Origin: a virus
Taxonomy: Duplodnaviria > Heunggongvirae > Uroviricota > Caudoviricetes
Direction: 5' to 3' (one strand)
Length of the DNA: 64,000 nucleotides
Virus record (IMG/VR): IMGVR_UViG_3300010403_000021
Coordinates: 1-64,000 of that record
Below the pieces are notes generated by a model. That model saw only the letters and a program-made list of their open reading frames with translations, searched no databases and had not been told where the DNA came from. Shown here one piece after another: positions 9,378 through 60,292 of the stretch. The translations under genes were made by a program, and so were the position numbers. The first letter of the stretch is position 1; each line of letters opens with the position of its first letter.

Positions 9378-10199
9378 ATGTCTAAAATACTAGTAATGGG
9401 CGATATTCATGGAAACTGGACTTGGACAAAAAAGATTATCGATGTAGCTGTTGCTGAAGACATCGATAAAATTATTCAAGTTGGTGACTTTGGAGTTTGG
9501 CCAGGTCCGGAAGGTAGAGAATATCTTTTGATTCTATCCAGATATCTAGTAAAGAAAAGCAAAAAGCTGGGTAGACAAGTTAATCTATATTTTCTGCCGG
9601 GAAATCACGAAGACTACAATCAAATCGATCAGTGGATGCTGAACATCAAACCAAATGAATATGGACACCGAGAGATCGAACCTAATCTTTTCTATACCGG
9701 TAAAGTAAATAGTTGGATTTGGGAAGGTAAAAAGTTCGGTGTGGTTGGTGGTGCAGTATCCATTGATAGACGTAGTCGTAAACTCAATGAATCATGGTGG
9801 CCGCAGGAGGTTCTTACTTCTGAAGAAATTCATCAGGCAAAAGAACTAGGCAAAGTCGATTATCTATTCACACATGATTGTCCAACACAACATCCATTCA
9901 ACTTTCTGATTGATCACCTTGACTCCACTATTCATCGTCAGTTCATGACTGACATTGCCAGAGTACTGAAGCCAGAAGCATGGTTCCACGGTCACTATCA
10001 TCACTATGCGGAGTATTTATTTCATCATGGTACCGGAGTGACCCCAGTTTATTCTCTGGATGCTGACGTACGTGCTACACACTCTCCAAGTCTTCAGCGT
10101 CATACGGTTGTGCTGGACGTAGAGACTGGTGTAGTATCCAGCATAGACAAGCAGTTCGAGTGGTTCGGTCAGAGATTCTATTTTGATAGGGAGCGTTAA
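9378..10199 (+). CDS. calcineurin-like metallophosphoesterase (lambda-PPase-type Ser/Thr phosphatase fold)
   Basis: GDIHGN, GDFG, GNHE motifs. Confidence 0.65.
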   Translation: MSKILVMGDIHGNWTWTKKIIDVAVAEDIDKIIQVGDFGVWPGPEGREYLLILSRYLVKKSKKLGRQVNLYFLPGNHEDYNQIDQWMLNIKPNEYGHREIEPNLFYTGKVNSWIWEGKKFGVVGGAVSIDRRSRKLNESWWPQEVLTSEEIHQAKELGKVDYLFTHDCPTQHPFNFLIDHLDSTIHRQFMTDIARVLKPEAWFHGHYHHYAEYLFHHGTGVTPVYSLDADVRATHSPSLQRHTVVLDVETGVVSSIDKQFEWFGQRFYFDRER

Positions 10200-10200
10200 G

Positions 10201-10938
10201 ATGATGCATTCCAGTCTTGGTATGCGTATGAAAGAATATGAAAAGAATCTGGCTACAGATAATGGTGTCAATATCATTCGTCTTGACGGAAAGGCTTTTC
10301 ATACATGGACCAAAAAGATTACTGGAAACAAGAATCCTTTTAGTTCAGTGATTCATGAATGTATGGTTACGGCAACAATAGAATTAGCCAAGGAAGTGCA
10401 AGGATTTAAGCTTGCATATACACAATCAGATGAAACTACGCTACTTATGGAAAATATTAATGAAAAAACTGAAGCGTGGTTCGGTGGCAAGACGCACAAA
10501 ATTACTAGTGTTGCCGCGTCTATTTTTACTTATGCTTTTAATAATCGTTTTAAGTATTACATTGGTACTTTTGGCTATCCAGATATTCCTGCCTACTTTG
10601 ATGCTCGTGTTCATTCTATTCCAGTAGAAGACGCACCGAATAATTTTGTATGGCGTCAGAAAGACTGGAATCGTAATTCAATTCAAATGCTTGGCCAGTA
10701 CTATCTTCCTCGTAATGAGATGCAAAATCTTTCTAACACTCAAGTTCTTGAGTATCTTAGAGAATTAAGAGATATTGATTGGAATGATCTTGATGATTGG
10801 AAGAAGTATGGGACTTTCATTGCTAAGAATCATCTAGATTCAGAATCATATGGTCCTTATGTTGCATTTTCAGATTATCTAGATTATAAAGATATCGCAA
10901 TTCATGCAGGCATTCACAATTATATTGATTGGGATTAA
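10201..10938 (+). CDS. Thg1-like protein (tRNA-His guanylyltransferase family 3'-5' nucleotidyl transferase)
   Basis: KEYEK..IIRLDGKAFH and AYTQSDETTLL match Thg1 N-terminal and catalytic SDE motifs; SD AGGGAG before ATG 10201. Confidence 0.75.
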   Translation: MMHSSLGMRMKEYEKNLATDNGVNIIRLDGKAFHTWTKKITGNKNPFSSVIHECMVTATIELAKEVQGFKLAYTQSDETTLLMENINEKTEAWFGGKTHKITSVAASIFTYAFNNRFKYYIGTFGYPDIPAYFDARVHSIPVEDAPNNFVWRQKDWNRNSIQMLGQYYLPRNEMQNLSNTQVLEYLRELRDIDWNDLDDWKKYGTFIAKNHLDSESYGPYVAFSDYLDYKDIAIHAGIHNYIDWD

Positions 10939-10941: not shown

Positions 10942-12852
10942 ATGCTACCTACTAAAACAGATATTCATGTAAGTGGTGATTTGGGCGGGGAAAGAGTACA
11001 GATGCGCCTTGATGCTGATAGTACAGCGCATCTTATGTCACTATTGACAGATCTATATTCTGACCCGCTTCTAGCAGTAATCAGAGAATATAGTACAAAT
11101 GCGTGGGATTCTCATGTAGCTGCTGGTGTAAATAAGCCAATTGAGGTAACCACACCAAATTATTTAACATCAACATTCCGTGTTAAAGATTATGGTCTTG
11201 GTATGGATGCGAATGATATTCGTGAAATCTATTCAAGTTATGGTGCTTCTACCAAGCGATCAAGCAATGATCAGGTTGGTATGCTCGGTCTTGGTAGTAA
11301 GAGTGGTTTGACTTATACCGATCAGTTTAATGTCATTGGTATTAAGAATGGTGTCAAGACCAGTGTTGCCGTTTCACGTTCTGGTGATGGTGGCGGTGTC
11401 ATGGAAATCATCGATGCTTCTCCCACCAATGAACCTAATGGTGTTGAGATTATTATTCCTATTAAAAAGAACAGCAATATTTTGAGTAAAGCTGAACAGT
11501 TCTTCAGATTTTGGGAACCGGGCAGAGTTTTGCTTAATGGTAAAGAGCCGCACTATATCTGGGAAGATTCAACCAAGGTCGGTAGATTTTACATCATCAA
11601 TGATGTAACAGACTATGTTGTCATGGGTAATGTCGCTTATCCGGTAAAGAATGAGATTACCGGCCAAGAGGGTTATAATCGTGAACGTGCTGTCGTAAAA
11701 GTTGATATCGGTGATGTTACCTTTACTCCTTCACGTGAATCATTGCAGATGACTCTTACCACTAAGAAAATGCTTTCAAGTTTACGTGAGGAATTCGCAG
11801 CAGAAGTAGTCAAGGAAATTGAAGTAAAGCTTTCTGCCTGTAATACTTATAAAGAAGCCTATAAAATGTTCAAGTCTTTAAGAAGCATGAATACTTTTAC
11901 AAGGCACATGAATAATGCAACCTACAAGGGAGCAAAGTACATTGAGTCTTATAAATTTGATTGGCATGTCAGCGGATTTCATCGTGATCAAATCAGCGCG
12001 GTGGAAGCGAGAAATTCCAGTCTCGGTTATGGTCTTGATAATATAGTTATTATTCATGGCTTCGATTGTGCTAGATTGAATGCTCCACAGAAAAAGAAGA
12101 TCAAGCTATATCTTGAGGACAATGGTATTCTTACCGGACAAGCTGTAGTATTTGTTAATAGAGATAAGCCTGATTCAGTATGGTTCAGTGAATGTCATCA
12201 GGTTGAATGGAAGACAATCAAGGCTATCAAGCTGGAATCTGCGAGGGTGGTAAGAACACAAGATACTTGGGATGTTCTTTGTTCACGTGGTAATAGGGAT
12301 TACAATCAGACTGTAGATAATACAAAGAAGCTTATTTATGGTTCCGGCGCTGAAATCAATGCCGATGCTGATCCTATTCTTGACATTCTTATCAATAACG
12401 ATACTCAGTTTCTTTTGGTTGGTAAAAATCGTCAAGATAAGTTTGTCAAGGCTAATCCAAAAGCAGTATATTGGCTTGACGAGGCTAAGGCCAGAGTGCT
12501 ACACTATATTGATAACGTAGCAAAAGATGACGTTAAACTGATCGACCAAGATATGAATCACATTGATATTCTATCAAGACTGGATATGTCTAAAATTGAT
12601 GATCCGGAAGTTAGTAGTATTGTATTCAGTGGTTCAGTAAATTCTCAGCACGCGGCACAACAACGATACAGCAATTATCGTAGATTGGCATCAAGACTAA
12701 AAGTTCCGGGTATGCCAGAACGTGTGGGTCGTGGCAATACAGATCTACTTGATAATTATCCTATGCTTACTCAGCTTGGATATAATTGTAGGTATGTTCC
12801 GGAAGAGCACATCTATGCTTACATGAATGCCATTTATGATTTAGGTCTATAA
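10942..12852 (+). CDS. rIIA: rIIA-like GHKL (Bergerat-fold) ATPase
   Basis: REYSTNAWDS (ExxxNAxD), DYGLGMD (DxGxG), GMLGLGSKSG; immediately upstream of rIIB homologue. Confidence 0.65.
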   Translation: MLPTKTDIHVSGDLGGERVQMRLDADSTAHLMSLLTDLYSDPLLAVIREYSTNAWDSHVAAGVNKPIEVTTPNYLTSTFRVKDYGLGMDANDIREIYSSYGASTKRSSNDQVGMLGLGSKSGLTYTDQFNVIGIKNGVKTSVAVSRSGDGGGVMEIIDASPTNEPNGVEIIIPIKKNSNILSKAEQFFRFWEPGRVLLNGKEPHYIWEDSTKVGRFYIINDVTDYVVMGNVAYPVKNEITGQEGYNRERAVVKVDIGDVTFTPSRESLQMTLTTKKMLSSLREEFAAEVVKEIEVKLSACNTYKEAYKMFKSLRSMNTFTRHMNNATYKGAKYIESYKFDWHVSGFHRDQISAVEARNSSLGYGLDNIVIIHGFDCARLNAPQKKKIKLYLEDNGILTGQAVVFVNRDKPDSVWFSECHQVEWKTIKAIKLESARVVRTQDTWDVLCSRGNRDYNQTVDNTKKLIYGSGAEINADADPILDILINNDTQFLLVGKNRQDKFVKANPKAVYWLDEAKARVLHYIDNVAKDDVKLIDQDMNHIDILSRLDMSKIDDPEVSSIVFSGSVNSQHAAQQRYSNYRRLASRLKVPGMPERVGRGNTDLLDNYPMLTQLGYNCRYVPEEHIYAYMNAIYDLGL

Positions 12853-12880
12853 AATAAACCAACCCGAAAGGTAAATAAAC

Positions 12881-13729
12881 ATGTCAAGAGCAGTAAAATA
12901 TAATCTAGTATGTAATGAATCAGATAATATTACAGTTTTCGTGGACGGTGAAATGTATGTCGCGGATTCAGATCACAATCCTAACTTTTCAGAGATCGTA
13001 GAAAAAGTACTTGCTGATGATGTTTCAGTAGTAGAACTATTTGATCTAGAAAAGACAGTCAGTAAGAAGTTTGAAAGACTATCAGAGCGAGTTGTTGTTC
13101 GTAATGGCAATATCTACTTTGATGGATCACCTGTTAACGATGTTCTTGGTAAGCAAGTTCTAAGATTCGTTGAAGATGACGTAGAAGATTGGCAGCCTCT
13201 TGTTCTATTCTGGGAGAATCTAGCCCAGAATCCCAATGAGCATTCACGTGAACAACTTTACAGTTGGCTTAATGATCGTAAATTCCAGATTTCTAAGAAT
13301 GGTAACATTGTTGGATTTAAGGGTGTCAAGATTGTTAATGGTGAATATCGTTCAATTCACGCCGGTCCAGCAATTGTGGATGACGTCGAAATGAATGGAT
13401 ATATTCCTAATGCCATTGGTTCAGTAATTGAAATGCCTCGTGCAGATGTTCAATCTAATTCAGCCGTAGGTTGTTCAACTGGTCTACATGTTGGTACATA
13501 TGATTATGCCAAGGATTTTGCTCAAGGCGCGGTGCTAACTGTTTCAGTTAATCCTCGTGATGTTGTGTCAGTTCCCTCTGATTGCAATGCAGCCAAGCTT
13601 AGAGTATGTCGTTATCGTGTAGTTAATGCAACAGCGGTAGAATGGTCAAGTGCTGTCTCTGACGTTGAAGATGACGAGGATAATGAAGACTATTGGTATG
13701 AAGACACCAATGACTATTGGACTTCCTAA
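12881..13729 (+). CDS. rIIB: rIIB-like protein
   Basis: VIEMPRADV...CSTGLHV...VNPRDVVSVPSDCNAAKLRVCRYRVV closely parallels T4 rIIB C-terminal conserved block. Confidence 0.75.
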   Translation: MSRAVKYNLVCNESDNITVFVDGEMYVADSDHNPNFSEIVEKVLADDVSVVELFDLEKTVSKKFERLSERVVVRNGNIYFDGSPVNDVLGKQVLRFVEDDVEDWQPLVLFWENLAQNPNEHSREQLYSWLNDRKFQISKNGNIVGFKGVKIVNGEYRSIHAGPAIVDDVEMNGYIPNAIGSVIEMPRADVQSNSAVGCSTGLHVGTYDYAKDFAQGAVLTVSVNPRDVVSVPSDCNAAKLRVCRYRVVNATAVEWSSAVSDVEDDEDNEDYWYEDTNDYWTS

Positions 13730-18305: not shown

Positions 18306-18386
18306 GCTAGTGTTGAACAGGTGGTGTGTTCCGCAGACTGTAAATCTGCCGCTTCGGCATTGGGGGTTCGATTCCCTTCACTAGTA
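18306..18386 (+). tRNA. tRNA-Tyr (anticodon GTA), long variable arm
   Basis: acceptor GCTAGTG/CACTAGT (G1-U72), D-stem GAAC/GTTC, perfect anticodon stem GCAGA/TCTGC loop CTGTAAA, T-arm GGGGGTTCGATTCCCTT. Confidence 0.7.
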
Positions 18387-18492
18387 CTTAAATTTATTGA
18401 CTGATTAAGTTAGGACAATTGGCTTATGAGCTGGGTCAAAAGTCAGGGCTTAGGCTATATAAGGGCGAAATGCAGTCATTAATAGGCTCAAT

Positions 18493-18589
18493 GGAAGAAT
18501 GGCAACTGAGGGAATGTTGCACCCTGCCGGTAAGTCAGGGATTGATTGGACGCAATCATAAAACGTAGGTTCGAGTCCTCCTTCTTCCA
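18493..18589 (+). tRNA. type II tRNA-like gene (97 nt) with an apparent 9-nt anticodon loop CCGGTAAGT; isotype unassigned
   Basis: perfect acceptor GGAAGAA/TTCTTCC, D-stem GCAA/TTGC, anticodon stem CCCTG/CAGGG, variable-arm hairpin GATTG-GACG-CAATC, T-arm GTAGGTTCGAGTCCTCC. Confidence 0.4.
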
Positions 18590-18612
18590 CTTCATATAAT
18601 GAAAGGTATAAA

Positions 18613-29433: not shown

Positions 29434-29438
29434 AAGTA

Positions 29439-29506
29439 ATCCGTTTAGTATAATGGTATTGCACCGGTACCCATCGGTAATACGGGTTCGATTCCCGTAG
29501 CGGATT
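29439..29506 (+). tRNA. tRNA, anticodon ambiguous (loop region GTACCCAT; Gly-like ACC/CCC possible)
   Basis: acceptor ATCCGTT/AGCGGAT, T-arm ACGGGTTCGATTCCCGT; anticodon stem ACCG(G)/(T)CGGT gives a 6- or 8-nt loop. Confidence 0.45.
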
Positions 29507-29528
29507 ATTCAACAAGAGGAGTAATGTA

Positions 29529-29771
29529 ATGACTAGTTTTTCATCAATGTTTGAATCTGCTCTAATCAAATTAGTTGAAGATAGAACTGATGAATCAATT
29601 GCCAGGATTATGAAATTTGAGGAAAGTAGTTATACTGACGGATACTGTGAATCATGTTGGTACGAAGAAGCTTGTGTTGATATTAAATACGAGTTAACTG
29701 ATGGCAGTATCAAAGAGTTTACTTATATTGGTGAATTCAGTGATCTTATCAGAGAATTGACGGAGGAATGA
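29529..29771 (+). CDS. acidic hypothetical protein
   Basis: ORF with SD AGAGGAG. Confidence 0.4.
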   Translation: MTSFSSMFESALIKLVEDRTDESIARIMKFEESSYTDGYCESCWYEEACVDIKYELTDGSIKEFTYIGEFSDLIRELTEE

Positions 29772-30001
29772 TGACAGAAATTAGATTAGAAGGCTCTTTT
29801 GATGAAGATGGAACAACGTGGGGCCTTGATGTTTGGGAAGTAAATGGTAAGTTTCATGTGGTTGCCACTTCTGAAGACGAAGAGACAGGATACGGCGGTG
29901 CAGAATTGGATGCTGAACAAGTAAGTCTATTAGTAGCGGCCGGTCTTGAATATCTAGCAAAGTATCGACATGGCGAATACCAGACTGCTTCTAAAGACTA
30001 A
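29768..30001 (+). CDS. acidic hypothetical protein
   Basis: ORF overlapping previous stop. Confidence 0.4.
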   Translation: MMTEIRLEGSFDEDGTTWGLDVWEVNGKFHVVATSEDEETGYGGAELDAEQVSLLVAAGLEYLAKYRHGEYQTASKD

Positions 30002-30026
30002 TCACGGAGTATGATATACTGTCTCT

Positions 30027-30620
30027 ATGGAAGAGACATGGAAAGAATTTTATAAAGGATATTTTATATCTAATCTAGGCAGAGTCAGAAGAAATTACGG
30101 TCCTAGACTTAATAACGAAGGGTTTTGTTATTTAAAACCTTTTCTAACAAAAAGTAGAAAAGCCATGAGCTTTGTTATAAAGCCTAAACATGACCCTTTT
30201 AAGGCCTATCAGGTTCATAACTTAGTGTCTAAGTATTTTATGACTCCCCCTAAACGTGGGGAGTTTATTAGACATAAAGATGGCGATGCCCGAAATAATA
30301 GAGTAGATAATTTAGAATATTATAGAAGATCTAGAAAGCCTTATATCAGTAATGATGGTTATAGAAGAATTCATGATTTTGACCATCCCAATTCTGATTC
30401 AGAAGGATGGTTGGCTGAACATAGGTATGTTATGTCAAAATCCCTCAATAGACCATTGAGACCTAGTGAAAATGTCCACCATATTAATGGCATAAGATCC
30501 GATAATAGATTAGAGAATCTGGAATTATGGGTTTCTCATCAACCAAGAGGACAACGCCCAATTGATTTAGTTGAATGGGCTAAAGAAATCTTAGATATAT
30601 ATGGCGATGAAGTTGGCTAA
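30027..30620 (+). CDS. HNH homing endonuclease (NUMOD4-like N-terminus + HNH)
   Basis: YFISNLGRVRR NUMOD4-type motif; HHINGIRSDNRLENLELW..HQ HNH motif. Confidence 0.65.
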   Translation: MEETWKEFYKGYFISNLGRVRRNYGPRLNNEGFCYLKPFLTKSRKAMSFVIKPKHDPFKAYQVHNLVSKYFMTPPKRGEFIRHKDGDARNNRVDNLEYYRRSRKPYISNDGYRRIHDFDHPNSDSEGWLAEHRYVMSKSLNRPLRPSENVHHINGIRSDNRLENLELWVSHQPRGQRPIDLVEWAKEILDIYGDEVG

Positions 30621-31173
30621 CACAAGAGTTCTTTTAAAATGCCATCACGGCTCTCATCTTTATGGGCTTTCGACCCCAACATCCGACCTTGATTACTATG
30701 AGATATTTGAATATCCTTGGCAAAAATATAGACCAAGAAAACAAGTATCTCAGGTAATCAAGGACGATGTTGATTTAACTGAAACATCGTTGGATAGATT
30801 CCAAGACATGTGTTTTAAAGGTATCCCTCAATCATTGGAAGCATTATTTGCCGGTGAGCAACACTGGGTGAAATATCATACTTCATGGTATGATAAACGT
30901 GAATCAATTGAGAACAATCTTCATATTTATCATATGGATATTATTGAAACATATAAAAGAACAGCCTTGAACTTCTTTTTGAAAGATGATTTCAAAAAGA
31001 ATAGACATGCTTTCAGACTTATGCATAATATCAATGAATTCAAACAGTGTGGCAGATTTGACCCAACATTAAATATAAATACGCGCGAGTCCATTACTCG
31101 AACTGCCGTGTTGCCCCGACAACGGCGTGAAGAAATCTTTTTGGATCTCTTTTATAATACTTTCTATCAATAA
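30601..31173 (+). CDS. minimal nucleotidyltransferase (pol-beta superfamily) domain protein
   Basis: HGSHLYGLSTPTSDLDY = hG[GS]x9-13 D h D NTase signature. Confidence 0.5.
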   Translation: MAMKLANTRVLLKCHHGSHLYGLSTPTSDLDYYEIFEYPWQKYRPRKQVSQVIKDDVDLTETSLDRFQDMCFKGIPQSLEALFAGEQHWVKYHTSWYDKRESIENNLHIYHMDIIETYKRTALNFFLKDDFKKNRHAFRLMHNINEFKQCGRFDPTLNINTRESITRTAVLPRQRREEIFLDLFYNTFYQ

Positions 31174-31192
31174 ACAATCTTATGGGGATTTA

Positions 31193-32260
31193 ATGTATAT
31201 CAGCAATTTACTAGATGCGGAGCTACTTGGTAGTCACATCCGCAATGGATATGTCACGGCAAGGCGACACCCACATTTGCCGTTGACTATTCTTAACTAC
31301 ACGCCTAAAGCTCAGTATGAGCAAATGTGGGACGAAGTGACTACACGATGCCGTGGTCTCGTTGTTGATAATAAAGGTGAAATCGCGGCAAACTGTATGT
31401 ATAAGTTTTTTAACTATGGTGAGCCTAATGCCAAAGACATTGATTTATCAGGCCCGGTACAAGTTACCGACAAGCTTGATGGATCTATGGGCCTGGTAGC
31501 TTTTTATGAGGATGTTTTATTTACCGCAACTCGTGGTTCCTTTGAGTCCGAACAGGCTCAATTTGCCTACGATCATATTATGAAGACTCCAGGTTATGCT
31601 GATGCTTTTCATACTATTTGTGGTAATTCTGTTACCGCTGTCGTAGAGATCATCTATCCGGAAAACCGTATTGTGGTTGATTATGGTGAAATGCGCGATG
31701 TTGTTTTAATCGGTGCTATTGCCAACAATGAACTATCAAATGGTCGTCAATTATGGATTCCTGCGGATAAGTTTTATTCTTGGCCTGGTCCACGTGTTGA
31801 GAAGTTCAATGCAAAGACTTTTGAAGATGCTTTACGTATTCCTCCTAGAATCAATAAGGAAGGTATCGTAGTATACTTTGAAAACACCGGGGATAGACTA
31901 AAGTTAAAGCAGCAGGATTATCTAATTGCCCATAAGTTTGTGTCTAATTTAACACCAAAGAATGTATGGCAGCAATTACATGATGGCAATACTTTAGAGA
32001 ATTTGCTTGAAATGGCACCGGATGAATTTCACGATACAGTTAGAGAATATGTAGCAAGTATACAGAAGAGTTTTGACCATCTGTTAAGGTTGGTCAATAT
32101 TGAGTTTGATAAAATAGACAGATCATTAACTCCAGGCTATTCACGTAAGGACTTTGCGTTAGCAGTAGCAAAGAATCCTTACAGAGGTCATCTGTTCCAT
32201 GTGCTTGACCAACGTAGTGACTTGCTGGTAGAGTCTGTCTGGAAGGCCATCCAACCTTAA
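31193..32260 (+). CDS. rnlA: RNA ligase 1 (T4 RnlA-like tRNA repair ligase)
   Basis: CRGLVVD...KFFNYGE parallels T4 Rnl1 CRGIMFE...KFFNLNE; adenylation motif I TDKLDGS (KxDG). Confidence 0.7.
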   Translation: MYISNLLDAELLGSHIRNGYVTARRHPHLPLTILNYTPKAQYEQMWDEVTTRCRGLVVDNKGEIAANCMYKFFNYGEPNAKDIDLSGPVQVTDKLDGSMGLVAFYEDVLFTATRGSFESEQAQFAYDHIMKTPGYADAFHTICGNSVTAVVEIIYPENRIVVDYGEMRDVVLIGAIANNELSNGRQLWIPADKFYSWPGPRVEKFNAKTFEDALRIPPRINKEGIVVYFENTGDRLKLKQQDYLIAHKFVSNLTPKNVWQQLHDGNTLENLLEMAPDEFHDTVREYVASIQKSFDHLLRLVNIEFDKIDRSLTPGYSRKDFALAVAKNPYRGHLFHVLDQRSDLLVESVWKAIQP

Positions 32261-32269
32261 GGAAGTAAA

Positions 32270-32650
32270 ATGGTTTTAACCAGATTAACCGTTATAATTA
32301 TGATCGTACTAAGTATCTTCAATCCGTCATTATGGCTTTGGACGATTATTGCTTTAGTTATTGTAGAGCTTGACTGGATCTCAGTACGATCTTATTATAA
32401 GAATAAAGTTAAGATAGTAGAAAAACCAGTAGAAACTATTAAGTTTAAAGATTCTCCAATTCAGCAAAATAAAATTAATGAACTTGAAAGCAAGCTGGTC
32501 ATTTCTAAAACTTCGGTTGAAGGTCAGCTTGCTTATCAAACCAAAGAAATTAATAGATTAATCAAAGAAAACGCTAGCTTATCCATACTGGTCGAAAAGC
32601 AAGCTATTCAAATCGATGAACTAAAGGAACAAAATGTTTCCGATTCTTGA
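32270..32650 (+). CDS. membrane-anchored coiled-coil protein
   Basis: two N-terminal TM helices then coiled coil. Confidence 0.4.
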   Translation: MVLTRLTVIIMIVLSIFNPSLWLWTIIALVIVELDWISVRSYYKNKVKIVEKPVETIKFKDSPIQQNKINELESKLVISKTSVEGQLAYQTKEINRLIKENASLSILVEKQAIQIDELKEQNVSDS

Positions 32651-33581
32651 GATTTACCAGGGGCTACCCGCTTCTGGTAAGTCCACTCAAGCTAAGCTAG
32701 AAGTAGAAAAAGATCTAGGTAATACAATCAGAGTGAATCGTGATCTGATTCGTGTTATGCTTCATAACAATATCTTTGATCGTAAGCTAACTGAACCACG
32801 CACTATTGCCGCCAGAAATACCTTGATTCGTGATGGACTAAAGCGCGGCGTTCGTGTAATTTGCGACGATACCAATCTTGATCCAAGAGTTGTCAAGGAT
32901 CTTATCAATATTGCTGAATTCTTCGGGGCTGAGGTTCGTATTACTCAGTTTGATGTTGATGTAAACGAATGTATTCGACGTGACAAGGCAAGAGCAGATC
33001 TGCCGGGTGAAGTTTCGGTAGGTGAAAAGGTTATTCGTGGAATGGTGAAGAACTATTTCGTTGACGGAAAGTTTCCTGAAAAGGCTGCTGAAGTCAAGGG
33101 AATTAGTTTTGCACCAGCGGTTAAATCATATGATAATTGGCTAGCGGTAATTTTCGATATTGATGGAACACTGGCTGACCATAAGGGAATTCGTTCACCG
33201 TATGACTATACAAAGGTCATCAAGGACCGGCCACGAGTAGCTGTTATCAAGGCCCTTCGCATGTATGCAAAGGCTGGTTATAAAATTATTATTTGTTCCG
33301 GCCGGGAAGATTTCTGTCGGGAAGATACAATTAAGTGGCTTGATCACCACCTTAGTTCTGTTGATGGCAATGGTGATATTGTCAAGGTTTCATATGATCT
33401 ATACATGCGTCCAACTGGAGATAAGCGTCAGGATCGCATTATCAAGGGTGAAATCTTTGATAAGCATATTCGTGATCATTGGGACATTGAAATGGTTTAC
33501 GACGATCGTGATCAAGTTATTGGGCTTTGGCGTGACGAATTGAAGCTTGATACTTGTCAAGTTAATTGGGGTGATTTCTAA
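32634..33581 (+). CDS. pnkp: polynucleotide 5'-kinase/3'-phosphatase (T4 Pnkp-like)
   Basis: N-terminal Walker A GLPASGKST; C-terminal HAD motif I IFDIDGTLA; same domain order as T4 Pnkp. Confidence 0.75.
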   Translation: MFPILEIYQGLPASGKSTQAKLEVEKDLGNTIRVNRDLIRVMLHNNIFDRKLTEPRTIAARNTLIRDGLKRGVRVICDDTNLDPRVVKDLINIAEFFGAEVRITQFDVDVNECIRRDKARADLPGEVSVGEKVIRGMVKNYFVDGKFPEKAAEVKGISFAPAVKSYDNWLAVIFDIDGTLADHKGIRSPYDYTKVIKDRPRVAVIKALRMYAKAGYKIIICSGREDFCREDTIKWLDHHLSSVDGNGDIVKVSYDLYMRPTGDKRQDRIIKGEIFDKHIRDHWDIEMVYDDRDQVIGLWRDELKLDTCQVNWGDF

Positions 33582-34750: not shown

Positions 34751-35335
34751 ATGGAACAATATACTCACGACCAGCGCAAAGCACTACGTGAAATCGACTG
34801 GACACGCAACGTACGCCCAGAGTTCAAAGGCTTGACTAACGACCAGATCAGGGCTAAGCTGGCACCGGTACGAAACAACCTAGTGTTTGCCTTTAATAAT
34901 GCTCTGAGAGATTTCAATTTCGGTGGCATTATTAGAGTGTCAAATGCTTTTGCGTGTAGATCAGTTATCTATTCAGGCTTTAGAAAATATGATCCACGTG
35001 GTGCAGTTGGTACTCTTAATTATGAAGATATTTATCATTTTCCTTCAATTGAAGACTTCAAGGCAATTATCATGAATTATCAAAACTTGGGTTATAGCTT
35101 TGTTGTAGCCGAATCAGACATGTATGATAAGTCAGTGCTTCTACCTCATTTTCGCTGGGATGATAAGACTGTTCTTATGCTAGGTGAGGAAGGTACTGGA
35201 GTACCTGAAGAGTTTATTGATATGGCTGATGTTGTTGTTACTATTCCTCAAGTAGGAAGTGTCAATAGCATGAACGTTGCCAGCACCGCCCATATTCTAG
35301 CCTATGATTATATGAAATCTACAGGAAGGTTCTAA
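34751..35335 (+). CDS. SpoU/TrmH-class (SPOUT) RNA 2'-O-methyltransferase
   Basis: LMLGEEGTGVPEEF and VVTIPQVGSVNSMNVASTAHILAYDY match SpoU motifs 2 and 3. Confidence 0.65.
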   Translation: MEQYTHDQRKALREIDWTRNVRPEFKGLTNDQIRAKLAPVRNNLVFAFNNALRDFNFGGIIRVSNAFACRSVIYSGFRKYDPRGAVGTLNYEDIYHFPSIEDFKAIIMNYQNLGYSFVVAESDMYDKSVLLPHFRWDDKTVLMLGEEGTGVPEEFIDMADVVVTIPQVGSVNSMNVASTAHILAYDYMKSTGRF

Positions 35336-36751: not shown

Positions 36752-37084
36752 TTGGATATTGCAAAGAAGCTTGCTGAAACCTCCCAAGAGAATATGCGTC
36801 ACGGAGCTATTATTACTTTGGGAGGTTCGGTTCAGGCTATGGGAATCAATAAGCGTACCAATGATCCGTTCTTCAACAAGGATTCCCATTGGTTGTCAGA
36901 ACATGCTGAAATGGCTGCTTTGCGTCGTTGTACTCGAACTAAGGGTTCAACTATCTATGTGGCCCGTGTGAATAAGACCGGGGAAGAACGCATGAGCAGG
37001 CCTTGCGACAAGTGCATGAGTCTGCTACGCTCTGCTGGTGTGAAGAAAATTGTGTACACCGTTGATTCTACCCAATACCTTTAA
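36752..37084 (+). CDS. CDA-fold zinc deaminase (dCMP deaminase or TadA-like tRNA adenosine deaminase)
   Basis: HAEMAAL (H[AC]E) and PCDKC (PCxxC) zinc-binding motifs. Confidence 0.55.
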   Translation: MDIAKKLAETSQENMRHGAIITLGGSVQAMGINKRTNDPFFNKDSHWLSEHAEMAALRRCTRTKGSTIYVARVNKTGEERMSRPCDKCMSLLRSAGVKKIVYTVDSTQYL

Positions 37085-51937: not shown

Positions 51938-52168
51938 ATGCTAACACAACCAGAAATGCGTCTTAGTGATGATGGAATGATAGCCCATAAAGTCTCTGAG
52001 GATGAAGAGGATATATCCGGGGAGCAAAGAAATTGGGTTATCGCCTATGTTCCTTTACCGGAACGACTCTATGACGCTTGGATAGGTTTTCCATTGTACG
52101 ATTATGAAGTTGAGGATTGGATGATTCTTCCCAACTTCCCCGCATTGGTTGATTGTATTGAAAGCTGA
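51938..52168 (+). CDS. acidic hypothetical protein
   Basis: internal ATG of track ORF 51890. Confidence 0.35.
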   Translation: MLTQPEMRLSDDGMIAHKVSEDEEDISGEQRNWVIAYVPLPERLYDAWIGFPLYDYEVEDWMILPNFPALVDCIES

Positions 52169-52177
52169 CATACTAGC

Positions 52178-52213
52178 ACCGGCCTTGATTTAAACATCAA
52201 TCAAGGCCGGTGC
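52178..52213 (+). terminator. 14-bp hairpin CACCGGCCTTGATT...AATCAAGGCCGGTG
   Basis: perfect inverted repeat after stop. Confidence 0.5.
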
Positions 52214-52234
52214 GGTATTAAAAGGAGATAATTA

Positions 52235-52411
52235 ATGGACGTCGTATTTATTGCCACTCACTCACGTGTTGAAATTATGGGATCACAAGCTCTTATTCAA
52301 AGATATGTTGATGCCATCAAGGGGCAACATGATCCTAGTTCTTACATGGAGAATTACTCACTAGCATCATCAAATAGTTCATATGATCCGATTATTTACT
52401 ACTGTAAATAA
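52235..52411 (+). CDS. small hypothetical protein (58 aa)
   Basis: strong SD AAAGGAG; not in track. Confidence 0.4.
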   Translation: MDVVFIATHSRVEIMGSQALIQRYVDAIKGQHDPSSYMENYSLASSNSSYDPIIYYCK

Positions 52412-52446
52412 TATTTAAATAATTATTTTGATGGTGGAATAAATAT

Positions 52447-52531
52447 ATATTGCTGTGATTTTTCATTTTCTTTCGTAATACTTATATAAATATATAATAT
52501 TGTGGCGATTTTTGGCTTTTCTTCGTAATGT
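52447..52531. repeat. imperfect direct repeat (~34 bp, ~80% identity) ATATTGCTGTGATTTTTCATTTTCTTTCGTAAT / ATATTGTGGCGATTTTTGGCTTTTCTTCGTAAT at the AT-rich/GC-rich junction
   Basis: aligned by eye; second copy abuts the composition switch. Confidence 0.5.
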
Positions 52532-52616
52532 CAATTCCATACAAAGGCTGGTCGCTGGCCACCACCGGGCACCGAGCACGCGCGCACGTGCAAATGATCA
52601 ACTTCGCGATTTGCAT

Positions 52617-53609
52617 ATGCTAAGAGATCAAACCGTGACCTTAGGGTTACCATTACGTGATCTAAAACATCGTTTTGTGGTTAGACTTGCGTTGCAAGCG
52701 CAGGCACACGGAGGAGATACGGACATGGTCAAGCTCTCGACTGTTCAGTTGGACCGGTTGCGGTTTCTGGGGTACTCGGAACGTGGCGCATTGGGTGGCA
52801 CCCGAAAGGCGACCATTGCCAAGCTCATGACGCTTGGTTTCATCCGTGACAACGGCAGGCTGTTCCGGTCATACGAGATCACTCCGGAAGGCATTGACCA
52901 CCTGCTGTCTGTTGTGCCGAACGCACCGATTCACACCAGCCACATGGGACCGGTTGTCATCGGTGCCTATGTGATCCACAACGGTCGGACTGGTGTCGTT
53001 CGCAAGATGCACGTCACTGAAAACAACACCATTTTTGGCGGAGTTGTCGGTGTTGAATTCGATGACTCTGTTATCAAGTGCGAAATGATTTCTTTCCGTG
53101 AATTGGAAACGACTGCGGCACGTTCAGCGGTTCACTTTCGCGAGGGTAGAGAAGGTCACGGGGATTCCCGTAGTTGGACCCGTTTGCTCAATGGCAAGCT
53201 GTACAGCTTCAACGTGGTGAACATGCCCAATGGTGAGGTGCGTTGGTTTGTTTCCATTTACAACGGTTACATTGGCGGGCCAAAATTCGCGTGTGCATGG
53301 TCGCGTGTTCGGCAGTGGACTTTCACTGCTGTTCAGCCCGTGCCTACCAAGTGGGTTGCCGAGCGCAACGGGCTGAACCTTTGGCGTGACGAGGATAAGG
53401 CAATGGCCTATCAGTCAACGCCAGTGTTTGACACTCGATTCGGTGCGTTGGGTGCATTGACTGCCATGCTCACCGATGAAATCAGCGGATGGAAGCGTAT
53501 GGGTAAGGACGCCACGCGCGATGAATTGATCTTGTCCGATGTCATCGGACATCCGAACCGTAACGAGTGGTCCGCTGGAAACGTTCAGTGGTCGATTCGC
53601 GGTTGGTGA
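52617..53609 (+). CDS. hypothetical protein, GC-rich (start uncertain; track ORF starts at TTG 52500 inside the repeat)
   Basis: long ORF with GC-rich codon usage. Confidence 0.45.
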   Translation: MLRDQTVTLGLPLRDLKHRFVVRLALQAQAHGGDTDMVKLSTVQLDRLRFLGYSERGALGGTRKATIAKLMTLGFIRDNGRLFRSYEITPEGIDHLLSVVPNAPIHTSHMGPVVIGAYVIHNGRTGVVRKMHVTENNTIFGGVVGVEFDDSVIKCEMISFRELETTAARSAVHFREGREGHGDSRSWTRLLNGKLYSFNVVNMPNGEVRWFVSIYNGYIGGPKFACAWSRVRQWTFTAVQPVPTKWVAERNGLNLWRDEDKAMAYQSTPVFDTRFGALGALTAMLTDEISGWKRMGKDATRDELILSDVIGHPNRNEWSAGNVQWSIRGW

Positions 53610-53631
53610 TCATTACATAGATAGACAATGG

Positions 53632-53658
53632 ATCTAAGCGGCCCCAACGTCAACGGCG
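53632..53658 (+). terminator. 10-bp hairpin GGCCCCAACG-TCAACGG-CGTTGGGGCC
   Basis: perfect inverted repeat 23 nt after stop. Confidence 0.5.
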
Positions 53659-53659
53659 T

Positions 53660-54850
53660 TGGGGCCTAGCTTTGCCTTAGAGCGTTTGCACATGCAAAAC
53701 AGGCTGCTATTCGCCCTCTAAGGCGTTGGGGTGGTCCTACCCATACAAAGACCCTAGGAAGCTATAAAAGTCGCTCTATGGCGAACATACAGGCCTTTAA
53801 GGGGCATTGTGGAGCACCTCGGCTCACACGCGTGCACAGGTGCATGATTGGACGTACTGATCAGTAACATGCGCACGCCATGTGCAGTAGCAAATCTGAC
53901 CAATTTCTAAGCCTGTGACCAGCGGAAACTCCGTCAGCGGCCTAACGCCGTTGGGGTGGTATGGATGTACCGGGGAAGGCTTTAAAGCGCTTAGCGTGGC
54001 TCTGAGAGGCCTTTACGGCGATATGGCCAGTCGACGCCTAGAGCATCAAATATGGTAACAACGCGGTAACTTATACATCAGTGGTCTATGCATCAAATGT
54101 TGATCAAGCTCTGACCTGCACAAACACCGTTAGCAAAAGAAAATCCTTGACTCAATGGGGGCCTGTGGTGCGTACTTGTGGAGCACCACGAACACCACAA
54201 CTCAAAACGCCAGACACGGGAACCCTTAGACGTCAAGGGTTTGAGAGCTAGTAGCAACACTACGTGTCACGGATACCGAGTTGACAGCCTAAACTGAATT
54301 TGCTACCTTTAAGGCCCCGCAAGGGGACGCACCACCCGCTAGCTCCCCAAAAGGGAACTTGGAAGCCTCACGACACGGCTTAGGGACGATTGAACTTTGA
54401 GAACTCAATAGCGAGCAAAGCCTAGTGAACAGGTGCGCTGATTACACGGACAGTCCCCGTGTACACCATTACCCTTGCGGGATGCAAGCGTGGCAGCAAT
54501 AGACCGAAGCGACTAGGGAGGCAATCCGACATATATTGTCCAAGCGTTCCGAGTATGCGAGTGCCGGACCAATCATGAGTCCCCCGCATAAATCCGCTTG
54601 GATAAAGATTATGAGGAATGTCTGACATAAGGTAAATCGCTTAGGGGCCGGTGATCCGCCCAATGCGCTTAAGACATATAGCGATTACCTGGCAGTATGG
54701 GATACCAGGTTTGGGGAATCAAATAAAGGTTTCCGGTGGTTCGATTCCACTCACTCTCACTAGCCCATTGGTGTATAAGCCTGACATTAAATCGGGAAAG
54801 CACAGTCATTCCCTAAAAAGGAGTGAGAGACCGGAATTAACCGGATGGGT
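53660..54850. other. ~1.2-kb GC-rich region without credible ORFs; contains repeated CGTTGGGG(TGG) motifs and a tRNA T-arm-like GGTGGTTCGATTCCACT (54735-54751)
   Basis: six-frame track shows only short or low-complexity ORFs; repeats at ~53649, 53722, 53947. Confidence 0.5.
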
Positions 54851-55015
54851 GTTAACTAAACGAAAAGAGAGTCAATTGCTCACCGTTGCTTTGCTGCTGA
54901 TTGTTCCGGTGATCGGTAAGGCTGTTTACGACACTCGCCTTACCGCAGACGAAAACGCGAACAATGACACCACCATTTTCGGTGAGTCGATTTACAACCC
55001 GGAAGGGTAATCGAA

Positions 55016-55249
55016 ATGAACTTTAGGCACATGGCCGATTTCATCGCTCACAACGGCACTGACGACGTTGACCTTTACCGCCGACACGTCAAGGCATGTG
55101 TCATTGCGGATGACAGCGGAGCGTTTCCGTTGTTTCCCGAATGGTTCGGCATCTACTACGCCGAAATGAACGTCGACTACGGTTTCAAGACGCGTCTTAT
55201 CCGGCGTCTCAAGTTCATCAAAGCTGCTTTCACGGGAAAGGTTGCCTGA
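55016..55249 (+). CDS. hypothetical protein
   Basis: ORF, GC-rich codon usage. Confidence 0.45.
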   Translation: MNFRHMADFIAHNGTDDVDLYRRHVKACVIADDSGAFPLFPEWFGIYYAEMNVDYGFKTRLIRRLKFIKAAFTGKVA

Positions 55250-55250
55250 C

Positions 55251-55520
55251 ATGCGCGTTGTCATTAAGGAATACAAGGGTCCGGGTGGGGAAATTCTGGA
55301 CTTGCTCAACGTGCTGGTGTTTCCGGATCGGGCAAACAACGTCGGTCGTATGGCCGATGTGCGGGGTGCGGACAACCGTAAGCCGCGTTCGTGGCAGATC
55401 ATGTGTGCAATCGGAGAGACGGAAACGTTCAACTCTACCGAAATGCTCTACATGGTTCGGAACGTTCACACCGGGCAGTGGACGATTGCGTTTCTGTCCG
55501 AACTCGGAAACCTCTACTAG
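55251..55520 (+). CDS. hypothetical protein
   Basis: ATG one nt after upstream TGA. Confidence 0.45.
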   Translation: MRVVIKEYKGPGGEILDLLNVLVFPDRANNVGRMADVRGADNRKPRSWQIMCAIGETETFNSTEMLYMVRNVHTGQWTIAFLSELGNLY

Positions 55521-55602
55521 CTAGGATTCCCTACGGTATTTATTGGTCCGTGCATTCGATTGCGAATAGGGAGCGCATTAACAATCGATGAAAGGTTGTC
55601 TA

Positions 55603-55872
55603 ATGACCATTCTCATGACTCCCGGTAAAACCCTTGACGAGTGCAAGGTCGAACAGATCAGCAAGACGCCTGCACTTCAGTGGGTCATTGACCACGTGGT
55701 GCACGGTGCAGTGGTGACCACTCACGGCATGTGCGGTTTGGTCGCTGCTGAACCGCGTACGGCCAGCAATGGCGCTTCGATGTTCCACTGCTACGGTTGC
55801 AACCTGACCCGCGTGGCAATGGAATTCCGTCCACAACCGTACAAGATCACCCGTTACGACTTTCTTTACTAG
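55603..55872 (+). CDS. hypothetical protein
   Basis: SD AAAGG. Confidence 0.4.
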   Translation: MTILMTPGKTLDECKVEQISKTPALQWVIDHVVHGAVVTTHGMCGLVAAEPRTASNGASMFHCYGCNLTRVAMEFRPQPYKITRYDFLY

Positions 55873-55880
55873 GGGTCACA

Positions 55881-56240
55881 ATGTACGAAGACGCGCATTT
55901 GGATGCCTCTTATGAGGATCGTTTCGCTGATGAGGTCTACTTTGGTAACGGACCTGATTGGGACCTACGCGATTTTGACGATTTTGATAACGACGAAAAC
56001 GAATGTGAGGGGCACGAAAGTCTGAACGGTGGCGACATGGGAGTTACCCGCTACTGTGACGGCTCTTGTGTGGTTTCAGCCGCTCCATTGCATTCGGATT
56101 CCACACAGATTCACCGCGCTGCCAATGGTCACACCATGAGCTATCGAGTCAAGCCCAATGGTGACCTCAGTCAGCATGATGCGACATGCGTTTACGATTG
56201 TCGTGCGTGTCAGAATGGTGATCAGCGTCCGGATTGGTAA
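55881..56240 (+). CDS. acidic Cys-rich hypothetical protein
   Basis: internal ATG of track ORF 55797. Confidence 0.4.
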   Translation: MYEDAHLDASYEDRFADEVYFGNGPDWDLRDFDDFDNDENECEGHESLNGGDMGVTRYCDGSCVVSAAPLHSDSTQIHRAANGHTMSYRVKPNGDLSQHDATCVYDCRACQNGDQRPDW

Positions 56241-56312
56241 AGCTTTTAATTCCCTCGGTTTAGCCGTGGCATTCAATTGCAAGGGAATTGTTTCCAATGA
56301 AAGGTGACAACA

Positions 56313-56690
56313 ATGGGAACTCCTAAGATCAATAGCACCGACGCCGCGTTCATTTACACTTTGGGCATGGTGGTCGGTGCTAACCCTGACAAGATCTACA
56401 CCATGCCCAATGAAATTGGGTGTGCCTACGTGCACCATGTCGACGGTGGTGGCCTGTGTGACGGCTGTCTGATCGGGACGGTACTCGTCAAGATGGGTGT
56501 GCCACGTGAGTGGTTCATTGAGGTAGACGCCAACACTGGCAAGGGTGCTGGTCTGGTGTTGGCGCAGTTCGGTTTCAGTCGTGAAATCGGCATCGCTGCT
56601 GATCGAGCGCAGAACGTGCAAGATGGCGGATCACCGTGGTGGCGAGCCGGTGAGGAATTCCTTTACACCTACGCTCAAATCAAGGCCTAG
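56313..56690 (+). CDS. hypothetical protein
   Basis: ORF. Confidence 0.45.
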   Translation: MGTPKINSTDAAFIYTLGMVVGANPDKIYTMPNEIGCAYVHHVDGGGLCDGCLIGTVLVKMGVPREWFIEVDANTGKGAGLVLAQFGFSREIGIAADRAQNVQDGGSPWWRAGEEFLYTYAQIKA

Positions 56691-56813
56691 CAACAAAGTC
56701 GGGCGCGACTTTAAACACGCCGGACGGATAATGGTTAATAGGGTTCATGGCCTATTCAAAGGTTCGATTCCTTTGGTCCGTACTCATGTAAAAGCTAAAT
56801 TGGAGGAAAGTAA

Positions 56814-57296
56814 ATGGCTCTTAGGTCCATTACCTCTTACATGTCAGGGGCTTTCAAGAGTCCTGGTGACCTTTTCAATGATGCTTTCGAATTCCTGGCA
56901 GATAAGGAATTCGATACGATGATCGGGACCGGTCTTTCCGGATCACTGATCATTCCGGTTTTGGCCAGGGAATTCGGTTCAGATTTCAATTGGGCCATCA
57001 TTCGCAAAGATCCTGGCAGCTCTCATGCCTCTACCGAATTGGAAGGGTATATCGGTAAGCGTTGGATTTTTGTAGATGATCTGATCGATTCCGGCGCAAC
57101 TTTGAAGCGTGTTAAGCAGGTGGTTGCTGATCGCTGCAAGGCTAATTCCTACTGGGACGGACATAAGACCGAATATGTGGGTACGTACCTTTACCACACA
57201 CGGCGTTGGTATCCCGCTGATCACCAGGTGGGCTATTACGTGAATTGCCGTTGTTTGACGTGTGATGCCTTAGAATCACGTCGTTACTCCTACTGA
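56814..57296 (+). CDS. type I phosphoribosyltransferase-domain protein
   Basis: RWIFVDDLIDSGATL PRPP-binding motif; GTGLSGSLIIPVLA flexible-loop region. Confidence 0.6.
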   Translation: MALRSITSYMSGAFKSPGDLFNDAFEFLADKEFDTMIGTGLSGSLIIPVLAREFGSDFNWAIIRKDPGSSHASTELEGYIGKRWIFVDDLIDSGATLKRVKQVVADRCKANSYWDGHKTEYVGTYLYHTRRWYPADHQVGYYVNCRCLTCDALESRRYSY

Positions 57297-57310
57297 ACAA
57301 AAAGTAAATA

Positions 57311-57423
57311 GAGGATATAGTTCAATTGGATTAGAATAACTAGCATAAGATACATCCCCACACATTGAATTGGGATGAATAGCTTATGTTAGATAGATGA
57401 GGGTTCGAGTCCCTCTATCCTCG
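57311..57423 (+). ncRNA. AT-rich extended tRNA-like gene (113 nt): perfect acceptor GAGGATA/TATCCTC, D-arm, T-arm GAGGGTTCGAGTCCCTC; anticodon position replaced by a 10-bp stem plus inner hairpin
   Basis: folded by eye; 10-bp helix CTAGCATAAG/CTTATGTTAG encloses ATCCC-13nt-GGGAT. Confidence 0.4.
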
Positions 57424-57879
57424 CTACCCTTAATGGGTATTGTTAAATAGTTCGGCTTCCCGCGCTTTTGCCCGGAAAACAAGTGTAAGCCCGAATGCGA
57501 ATAGCATTGGTCACTAGGTTGGCTACTACGGTCCCAATCGACACGGCTGTATGCGTGATTCGAGCCGTCAATTACCTTGCTCATGTGCATATACTCTATG
57601 ACGGTAAAGAGTTGGAAAGTGTGCACCGTAGGCGTTATCGATTGCGCGACAATATAAATGTCGGTGTGGAGACGCAAAGTCCAATGCGCTATCAATATGG
57701 TCATTGACCTGACAGTTAGCACTAGGGCGATACCACTTGAGTGGGAGTCAGAGAAACATAAGCAATTGATAAGCGACCTTTAGGAGATAATAAAAACAAG
57801 CGGCGGTTATATCATTATATTATGGTATCGCTAAGTGCGGGACAAATAAACAAAACCCGCTTTAACGAAAGGCGTAACA

Positions 57880-58107
57880 ATGGATCTTGCTAAAGTGCAA
57901 AAGCTAAATGCCGCTGCACATTCTCTTGATTCTTGGGTAGAGACGCTAGCGTTTTACGTTGAAAATCCTACGGCGGTTCCGAATAGAGCGGCTACCACGT
58001 TTGCAACACGTGAGGAATTCATTGAGCACATCGGTTGCATGATTGGACACTATCAAGACGAATTCAATGCCGCGTACAACGATATTCCGGAATGGGTGAG
58101 TAAATGA
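57880..58107 (+). CDS. hypothetical protein
   Basis: ORF. Confidence 0.45.
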   Translation: MDLAKVQKLNAAAHSLDSWVETLAFYVENPTAVPNRAATTFATREEFIEHIGCMIGHYQDEFNAAYNDIPEWVSK

Positions 58108-59279: not shown

Positions 59280-59287
59280 GGGAGATA

Positions 59288-60210: not shown

Positions 60211-60239
60211 TAGTCGCTTTAAACCAAACCAATAGATAG

Positions 60240-60268: not shown

Positions 60269-60292
60269 CTTAACCCAAAAGGGGTAAAGAAA

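Follow-up and report, generated by a model that had tools for sequence, protein, structure and literature searches.

A predicted RlaP-Rnl1-Pnkp operon for RNA repair in an uncultivated, tRNA-rich phage

In bacteriophage T4, the polynucleotide kinase-phosphatase (Pnkp) PseT and the Rnl1-family RNA ligase RnlA counter the anticodon nuclease PrrC. A third enzyme, the nucleotidyltransferase (NTase) RlaP, reportedly received its family name from Burroughs and Aravind in 2016, comparative genomics being said to have tied it to RNA ligases. The name stands for "RNA ligase-associating Pol-beta", a term derived from gene-neighbourhood analysis, and the combination of Pnkp, RlaP and RNA ligase has already been described. 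Two Pseudomonas RlaPs (PfRlaP and PaRlaP) were characterised in a 2025 preprint by Carruthers, Fatma and Huang: one to two nucleoside monophosphates (NMP) were added to RNA 3′-OH ends with little base preference, DNA and 3′-phosphorylated ends were not used, Mn2+ was favoured, and the 3′ end within a nicked anticodon loop was favoured over the acceptor 3′ end (PMC12776372). When a tRNA lacking one loop nucleotide was treated with RlaP before ligation, aminoacylation was partly restored; the authors proposed that RlaP counters nucleotide-excising nucleases such as RloC, and assigned T4 NrdC.11 to RlaP (PMC12776372). Here, a locus encoding all three enzymes is described from positions 1–64,000 of the IMG/VR record IMGVR_UViG_3300010403_000021, an uncultivated phage of ~138 kb; this stretch of 64,000 nucleotides is referred to below as the window.

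Positions 30027–33581 of the window are occupied by five consecutive plus-strand open reading frames (ORFs), with coordinates and motifs as given in the original prediction, which had been made from the sequence without database searches. The E-values of their family matches lay far beyond chance. Three of the ORFs encode the enzymes in question:

30601–31173, plus strand: RlaP nucleotidyltransferase (PF10127), 190 amino acids (aa); assigned by PF10127, phrog_388, BLASTP against T4 NrdC.11, invariant residues and an AF2 model.
31193–32260, plus strand: Rnl1-family RNA ligase, 355 aa from the ATG used by relatives; assigned by PF09511, phrog_562 and PDB 2c5u/5tt6.
32634–33581, plus strand: Pnkp, bifunctional polynucleotide 5′-kinase/3′-phosphatase of the T4 PseT type, 315 aa; assigned by PF25109, PF13671, phrog_505 and PDB matches.

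We consider it likely that these genes form a phage operon for the repair of tRNAs, possibly also of other translation RNAs, cut by host defence ribonucleases. The analysis established family membership, intact catalytic residues and a conserved co-location of the three genes. The heal-and-seal part, consisting of Pnkp and Rnl1, is very likely; the fill step proposed for RlaP would rest on the biochemistry of distant members of its family.

Pnkp is a full-length kinase/HAD-phosphatase of the T4 type, with predicted activity on RNA ends. The Walker A and HAD DxDGT motifs claimed for it were present as GLPASGKST and DIDGT, and both domains were matched by profiles: the kinase by AAA_33 (PF13671, E 1.1e-17), and the phosphatase, whose absence had been named beforehand as an argument against the assignment, by HAD_PNKP (PF25109, E 1.8e-46) over profile positions 3–143 of 143. 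In addition, phrog_505 was matched at E 1.1e-81, and end-to-end PDB matches were obtained with 4xrp (Pnkp1, E 5.5e-36) and 1ltq (T4 polynucleotide kinase, E 3.5e-30). For Pnkp and the ligase, the T4 reference proteins were taken from NC_000866 and aligned globally with the window proteins, and those residues which we take to be essential from mutational studies of the Shuman laboratory were mapped computationally. All 13 PseT residues were identical in the window protein, namely K15, S16, D35, R38, D85 and R126 of the kinase and D165, D167, R176, R213, D254, D277 and D278 of the phosphatase.

The ligase, predicted as an Rnl1 with a KxDG motif, in which the lysine is the nucleophile, was found to contain KLDGS together with EIIYPENRIV and KLK, and was matched by PF09511 (E 5.6e-15; 56.2 bits, the cut-off being 28.3), by phrog_562 (E 1.3e-64, covering residues 24–376) and by T4 Rnl1 (PDB 2c5u/5tt6; E 2.4e-14 over residues 49–338). 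Its ORF as listed begins with GTG at 31127, from where it would overlap the NTase gene by 47 nt; ATG 31193 is the likely start, because relatives and the PHROG match begin there. In a phmmer alignment with T4 Rnl1, residue 338 of 355 of the query and residue 342 of 375 of the T4 protein were reached, and the Rnl1-specific C-terminal helical domain is covered. Eleven of the 12 essential residues were identical to T4 (R54, K75, F77, K99, D101, G102, E159, E227, G228, K240 and K242), the sole change being the conservative K119R. NCBIfam TIGR02308 was matched with 60.1 bits, under its equivalog cut-off of 242 bits, and the enzyme is best classed as a divergent member of the Rnl1 family, not as a close T4 orthologue. 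With catalytic residues intact in both proteins, the assignment as a T4-type heal-and-seal pair held.

The NTase belongs to the RlaP family and is not an unexplained add-on to this pair. PF10127 was the sole Pfam family matched at E ≤ 0.01 (36.6 bits against a gathering cut-off of 23; E 5.2e-9), phrog_388 was matched at E 2.3e-22, and the N-terminal domains of the protein and of T4 NrdC.11 were homologous by BLASTP (32% identity over 94 residues, E 6e-10). Among 85 homologues, most carried a precomputed PF10127 annotation. The HGS motif by which a minimal Pol-beta-type NTase had been predicted upstream of the ligase was confirmed at residues 16–18, followed by D29xD31; H16-G17-S18, D29, D31 and D58 were invariant in 18 homologues with identity down to 31%. 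When 1.84 billion cluster representatives were searched with a profile, 3295 relatives emerged at E ≤ 1e-3. Because the best of these were mostly 145–200 aa long, the short form makes up a large group in its own right rather than a truncated version. In the AF2 model (pLDDT 90.4), an NTase core is followed by a four-helix C-terminal part, and the nearest predicted viral folds were phage nucleotidyltransferases with TM-scores up to 0.75–0.84, e.g. that of Rhodococcus phage Trina (0.75/0.84).

Other functions of the NTase were weighed against these matches. The generic Pol-beta hGS...DxD motif would also fit two roles put forward in the original prediction, namely that of an MNT-type antitoxin with a HEPN partner and that of a CCA-adding enzyme. 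For the NTase and ten neighbouring ORFs, no match to the NTP_transf_2, PolyA_pol or HEPN Pfam families, and hence no HEPN partner, was obtained at E ≤ 0.01; no CCA-adding signature was found in the NTase using Pfam at the same threshold (including PF01743) and NCBIfam, and no PADLOC defence-system profile was matched. The genes on either side of the NTase gene encode an HNH endonuclease and an RNA ligase. We regard either role as extremely unlikely. The antitoxin proposal was dropped accordingly, and from the earlier suggestion of a tailing or nucleotidylation step the CCA-adding variant was left without any family match, whereas the general idea came close to the published addition of one to two NMP to RNA 3′-OH ends. 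Foldseek against the PDB returned generic two-domain NTases at TM-scores of ~0.5, the best solved fold neighbour being Hailong HalB (E 4e-5), followed by kanamycin nucleotidyltransferase. A HalB-like enzyme would make a small oligonucleotide signal or decoy against host defence, its ligase neighbour being incidental; however, identity to HalB was only ~10% at a modest TM-score, the family profile found no solved chain by sequence, sequence places the protein in PF10127, no PADLOC profile was matched, and its position beside ligase and Pnkp is conserved, so that we hold a HalB-like role to be very improbable.

The gene neighbourhood was compared among related loci, which are given L numbers here. 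Of 11 related metagenomic contexts, 10 encoded RlaP, an RNA ligase and Pnkp in this order on a stretch of ~3.5 kb, with RlaP at most ~1.3 kb upstream of the ligase in the same proportion (10/11); in the window, RlaP adjoins Rnl1. Linked contexts, with RlaPs 39–98% identical to that of the window, were L002, L003, L004, L005/L006, L008, L009, L017 and L018, together with one contig lacking DNA. In L009 and L018, a PF09414 ligase replaces Rnl1 while RlaP and Pnkp are kept, which would argue for a functional slot rather than for a merely inherited order. Co-transcription of the three genes is suggested by their tight spacing and overlaps; a promoter and terminator scan of 28.5–35.5 kb gave results no better than shuffled sequence.

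Several observations weigh against a common repair function that includes RlaP. The conserved order was seen within one phage lineage and may in part be inherited synteny, and neither a ligase nor Pnkp was encoded close to the more distant homologue in L016. The homologous short RlaP of cultured Streptomyces phages is encoded within the tRNA array, at a distance of ~28–30 kb from Rnl1-Pnkp. The window protein, being of the short form (190 aa), matched PF10127 over positions 17–172 of 249, and neither alone nor as a profile did it give a meaningful sequence match to PDB chains; the characterised Pseudomonas RlaPs likewise showed no detectable sequence similarity to any solved chain in the PDB copy searched.

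In the proposed repair pathway, a host anticodon nuclease would leave a 2′,3′-cyclic or 3′-phosphate end and a 5′-OH end. Both would be healed by Pnkp, its HAD phosphatase generating a 3′-OH and its P-loop kinase a 5′-phosphate. If a nucleotide had been excised, as by nucleases of the RloC type, RlaP would put one to two NMP on the healed 3′-OH of the 5′ fragment, and Rnl1 would finally join the 3′-OH to the 5′-phosphate in the loop; the 3′-OH product of RlaP suits 5′-phosphate ligases such as Rnl1. Substrates, step order and the gap-filling role are extrapolated from T4 genetics and biochemistry and from the biochemistry of the Pseudomonas RlaPs.

The short RlaP might instead act on the acceptor 3′ ends of phage tRNAs, adding C75 and A76, with Pnkp and Rnl1 performing loop repair alone. 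Of 24 tRNA genes in the window (3107–27460), 22 encode the discriminator N73 and C74, and none encodes C75-A76; the relatives surveyed (L001–L009 and L015, including the cultured Streptomyces phages Tomas and Wofford) gave the same picture, with C74 in 47 of 49 genes and C75 in none. As the genes stop at C74, mature ends need two added nucleotides, and the placement of the Streptomyces-phage RlaP in a tRNA array away from the ligase would fit such a function. On the other hand, hosts whose tRNA genes lack CCA must own a CCA-adding enzyme, the window protein matched no CCA-adding family, and RlaP stood beside ligase and Pnkp in 10 of the 11 contexts. The Pseudomonas enzymes, moreover, showed little specificity among nucleoside triphosphates and preferred the loop 3′ end to the acceptor end in a nicked tRNA mimic. 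Acceptor-end addition is therefore judged unlikely, although it deserves to be kept in view, and repair of cleaved tRNAs by all three enzymes is retained as the preferred reading.

The remaining two ORFs between 30027 and 33581, an HNH endonuclease gene and a small membrane ORF, would be selfish or accessory insertions outside the repair mechanism:

30009–30642, plus strand: predicted mobile insertion, 634 bp, comprising a 17-nt spacer, the HNH ORF and recoded RlaP codons 1–17 (MAMKLANTRVLLKCHHG).
30027–30620, plus strand: predicted HNH endonuclease of the homing type (197 aa), which contains two HNH_3-like modules; assigned by PF13392, phrogs and PADLOC.
29970–30008, plus strand: remnant of the original RlaP 5′ end, MANTRLLLKTNHG, followed by V-stop (MANTRLLLKTNHGV-stop); identified by alignment with L002, L003 and L004.
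32270–32650, plus strand: accessory protein, 126 aa, with hydrophobic N-terminus and hydrophilic tail, in a variable slot between ligase and Pnkp.

The first gene had been described as a NUMOD4-HNH endonuclease. Its HNH character was borne out by PF13392 (HNH_3) in two stretches (E 2e-15; 56.6 bits against a cut-off of 24.8), by phrog_959 and phrog_20891 (E ~1e-26) and by the PADLOC 'homing endonuclease' profile (E 8.8e-9), whereas NUMOD4, with 17 bits under a cut-off of 23.4, is a hint only. The homing type is indicated by L002, which lacks the 634-bp insertion while being ~91% identical upstream and ~96% identical across RlaP-Rnl1; the insertion is also absent from L003, L004, L005, L008 and L017. 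It is located after RlaP codon 13, where it separates the glycine from the serine codon of hGS, the catalytic motif (HG|S). In the HNH-free form, RlaP starts with ATG GCG AAT ACC AGA CTG CTT CTA AAG ACT AAT CAC GGA up to the insertion site and continues with TCA CAT, its start overlapping the end of an upstream 77-aa ORF; the L002-type sequence of the site is CTAAAGACTAATCACGGATCACATCTTTATGG. The 13 original codons persist in the window as an upstream stump, which in another frame still shares nucleotides with the 77-aa ORF (29768–30001) at the 3′ end of the latter. The last 20 nt of the HNH ORF overlap the new RlaP start encoding MAMKLANTRVLLKCHHG, which deviates from the old copy at roughly every third position and passes into the old gene precisely with the hGS serine codon. 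By these features, the gene is predicted to be a mobile, strain-specific homing-type endonuclease, and the break within hGS, among the best conserved codons of the target gene, together with the recoded flank is consistent with the expected trace of such an enzyme with target-site immunity, cleavage at this site being a prediction.

An HNH gene overlapping the RlaP start was found not only in the window (30027–31173, 20 nt) but also in T4 (mobD/nrdC.11, NC_000866 55435–57208, 17 nt), and a PF01844 HNH gene overlaps it in L009 (7643–8549) and L018 (5631–6534) by 59–71 nt. No sequence similarity of the window HNH protein to T4 MobD or to the L009 HNH protein was detected. A single spreading element as the cause of this layout was rejected, the three HNH proteins being unrelated in sequence. 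Because unrelated HNH proteins overlap the RlaP start in several phages, the conserved RlaP 5′ end may well be a recurrent homing target.

The ORF between Rnl1 and Pnkp, previously described as a membrane ORF, fits that description through its N-terminal ~35 residues, which are hydrophobic (Kyte-Doolittle ~1.9–2.0). It had no family match in Pfam, PHROG, NCBIfam or PADLOC, is absent in L002, L003 and L017, and has a 59% identical homologue in L004; elsewhere, DUF732 or different small ORFs fill the slot. The ORF is flanked by a ribosome-site/start motif, AAGGAAnnAAAATG, that is present in duplicate.

Just upstream of the operon, a further RNA-related element was located:

29438–29507, plus strand: conserved tRNA-like gene in which the anticodon arm falls 3 nt short; detected by ARAGORN ('tRNA-???') and Rfam tRNA.

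ARAGORN gave a 2-nt anticodon for this gene, and the Rfam tRNA model was matched with 44.5 bits and a 4-nt loop instead of the 7 nt in the model; the anticodon arm can be drawn as a 5-bp stem with a 6-nt loop or as a 6-bp stem closed by a tetraloop. C74, which the true tRNA genes encode, is missing from it. It recurs at the same place in L002 (6892–6961), L003 (6711–6780) and L004 (6702–6771), and is absent in L005, L008 and L009. Its body is almost invariant, while the flanking DNA is 70–92% identical: in L003, 71 of 72 body positions were identical (flanks 76%), and in L004 the body differed at 6 of 78 aligned positions (flanks 70%), where four stem changes all keep pairing. The loop varies between near-identical phages, reading TACCCA, TAGACA, TAAATG and TACCCA across the four genomes. 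Covariation among the four sequences was not significant, 117 of 500 shuffles being as good, a sample of too few sequences. The closest gene among the loci compared was tRNA-Val(GAC) of Streptomyces phage Wofford, and exact-pattern scans of IMG/VR and JGI metagenomes for further copies returned only the contig already known. The gene is predicted to be under selection as an RNA and would not be able to decode normally. That it represents a dedicated RNA-repair or anti-defence component instead of a decaying tRNA gene, be it a decoy for defence enzymes that target tRNA, a partner of the phage Ro60 protein or, most radically, a precursor that is cut, filled in by RlaP and ligated by Rnl1 to a decoding tRNA, is a long shot.

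Downstream of Pnkp, genes for a DUF7455 protein, a TrmH-like SpoU methylase, a YAcAr-like protein and a CDA-fold deaminase are syntenic across the lineage. The methylase gene has the following position:

34751–35335, plus strand: SpoU/TrmH-type RNA 2′-O-methyltransferase; PF00588, E 2.3e-22; 1.2 kb downstream of Pnkp.

Its best solved relatives were the Gm18 methyltransferases TARBP1 and TrmH, and it was found downstream in nearly all of the relatives compared (L003, L004, L005, L008, L009, L017 and L018), though not in the one at the greatest distance; that it belongs to the repair module is conjecture. The deaminase (36752–37084, plus strand; 110 aa; PF00383, E 2.6e-10) keeps its place in the majority of the relatives compared and gave no PDB sequence match. 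A tRNA-Arg(ACG), which needs A34-to-I editing, is encoded by the phage at 27388–27460, and the enzyme could be of the TadA type rather than act on dCMP.

Further RNA-related genes were noted upstream. A Ro60/TROVE and vWA protein is encoded at 5180–6784 (plus strand; PF05731, E 2e-32; PF25045, E 7e-53), and just upstream of it, at 5005–5076, lies a 72-nt 'tRNA-Leu(UAG)' without long variable arm and without C74. An Rfam search for a Y RNA beside the Ro60 gene yielded only a below-threshold tRNA-Sec-like match (25.7 bits, 7648–7741), whose fold was no more stable than shuffles; either this RNA or that at 5005–5076 could be a Y-RNA-type partner of Ro60. At 9378–10199 (plus strand), a calcineurin-like metallophosphoesterase is encoded, followed by a Thg1-like 3′-5′ nucleotidyltransferase at 10183–10938 (plus strand; PF04446, E 1.2e-24). 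Both lie 20 kb upstream of the operon, beside rIIA/rIIB homologues (10942–13729), and are further candidates for RNA-end repair. The second tRNA-Tyr(GUA) at 18493–18590 is 98 nt long, whereas the first copy (18306–18387) has 82 nt, which suggests an insertion or an intron-like extension.

With at least 25 tRNA genes, the Ro60/TROVE protein, the Thg1-like enzyme and the TrmH-like methylase, the window fits the RNA-repair toolkit that has been described for large phages (PMC7824862). Nearly all of its ORFs lie on the plus strand, and its G+C content is ~38–40% up to 52 kb and ~48–51% thereafter; small plus-strand ORFs go on in this final 12 kb (52000–64000), where a 113-nt tRNA-like Rfam match at 57311–57423 was without an ARAGORN call. 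The 3.5-kb region had no nucleotide-level match among 50,697 phage records. L002 is an IMG/VR contig of 137,582 bp whose ligase is 98% identical to that of the window, and the NTase homologues were mostly found on contigs of 125–140 kb. WhiB and DUF732 genes are present in one distant relative, and the nearest cultured relatives of all three repair proteins were large actinophages, mainly Streptomyces Stanwilliamsviridae, at 33–40% identity. Because of these two observations, the host probably belongs to the Actinomycetota.

Compared with T4, the same two enzyme families with shared essential residues are encoded in the window, at 31% (Rnl1) and 37% (Pnkp) identity. The T4 order rnlA-alc-pseT.3-pseT.2-pseT.1-pseT corresponds to that of the window, as the original prediction had invited one to check: the ligase gene comes first, one or more small membrane genes follow, then the kinase-phosphatase gene and, at some distance downstream, a deaminase gene. 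The view that the NTase has no place in the T4 system had to be given up, since T4 encodes the RlaP NrdC.11; this gene is located at 55.4–56.4 kb, ~80 kb from rnlA/pseT (134–137 kb), whereas all three genes form one operon in the window, and its product is longer (336 aa against 190 aa). T4 and the window have in common an HNH gene overlapping the RlaP start (17 and 20 nt, respectively), with unrelated HNH proteins.

With PfRlaP and PaRlaP, the window protein shares the Pol-beta NTase type, three conserved acidic residues and a gene position beside an RNA ligase, but as a short form it appears to lack the C-terminal third of the Pfam profile. The two Pseudomonas enzymes are encoded in RtcB-RtcA operons, whose ligase needs a 3′-phosphate (PMC12776372), whereas the partners in the window are a 5′-phosphate ligase and Pnkp. 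The published 3′-OH product would fit directly into such an operon and is less easily reconciled with the RtcB operons investigated to date.

The closest cultured carriers of all three proteins are Streptomyces cluster-BE-like phages (Stanwilliamsviridae such as Tomas and Wofford), with genomes of ~130 kb and large tRNA arrays. There, Rnl1 is followed by three small ORFs and then Pnkp, and the tRNA genes likewise end at C74; RlaP, however, is separated from Rnl1-Pnkp as stated above, and at the nucleotide level these phages show no similarity to the window. The bacterial Pnkp1-Rnl-Hen1 complex (PDB 4xrp), the best solved relative of the window Pnkp, likewise belongs to the heal-and-seal systems and has its ligase as a separate protein; it includes Hen1, which the window lacks. 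The TrmH-like SpoU methylase is encoded 1.2 kb downstream.

The association of an NTase with Pnkp and Rnl1 is thus a described one, and the window provides a new example, not a new kind of system. Such cassettes now extend to uncultivated, tRNA-rich phages of ~135–140 kb, and the three small proteins with intact active sites would be convenient for reconstituting the healing, filling and sealing of tRNAs cut by nucleotide-excising nucleases such as RloC.

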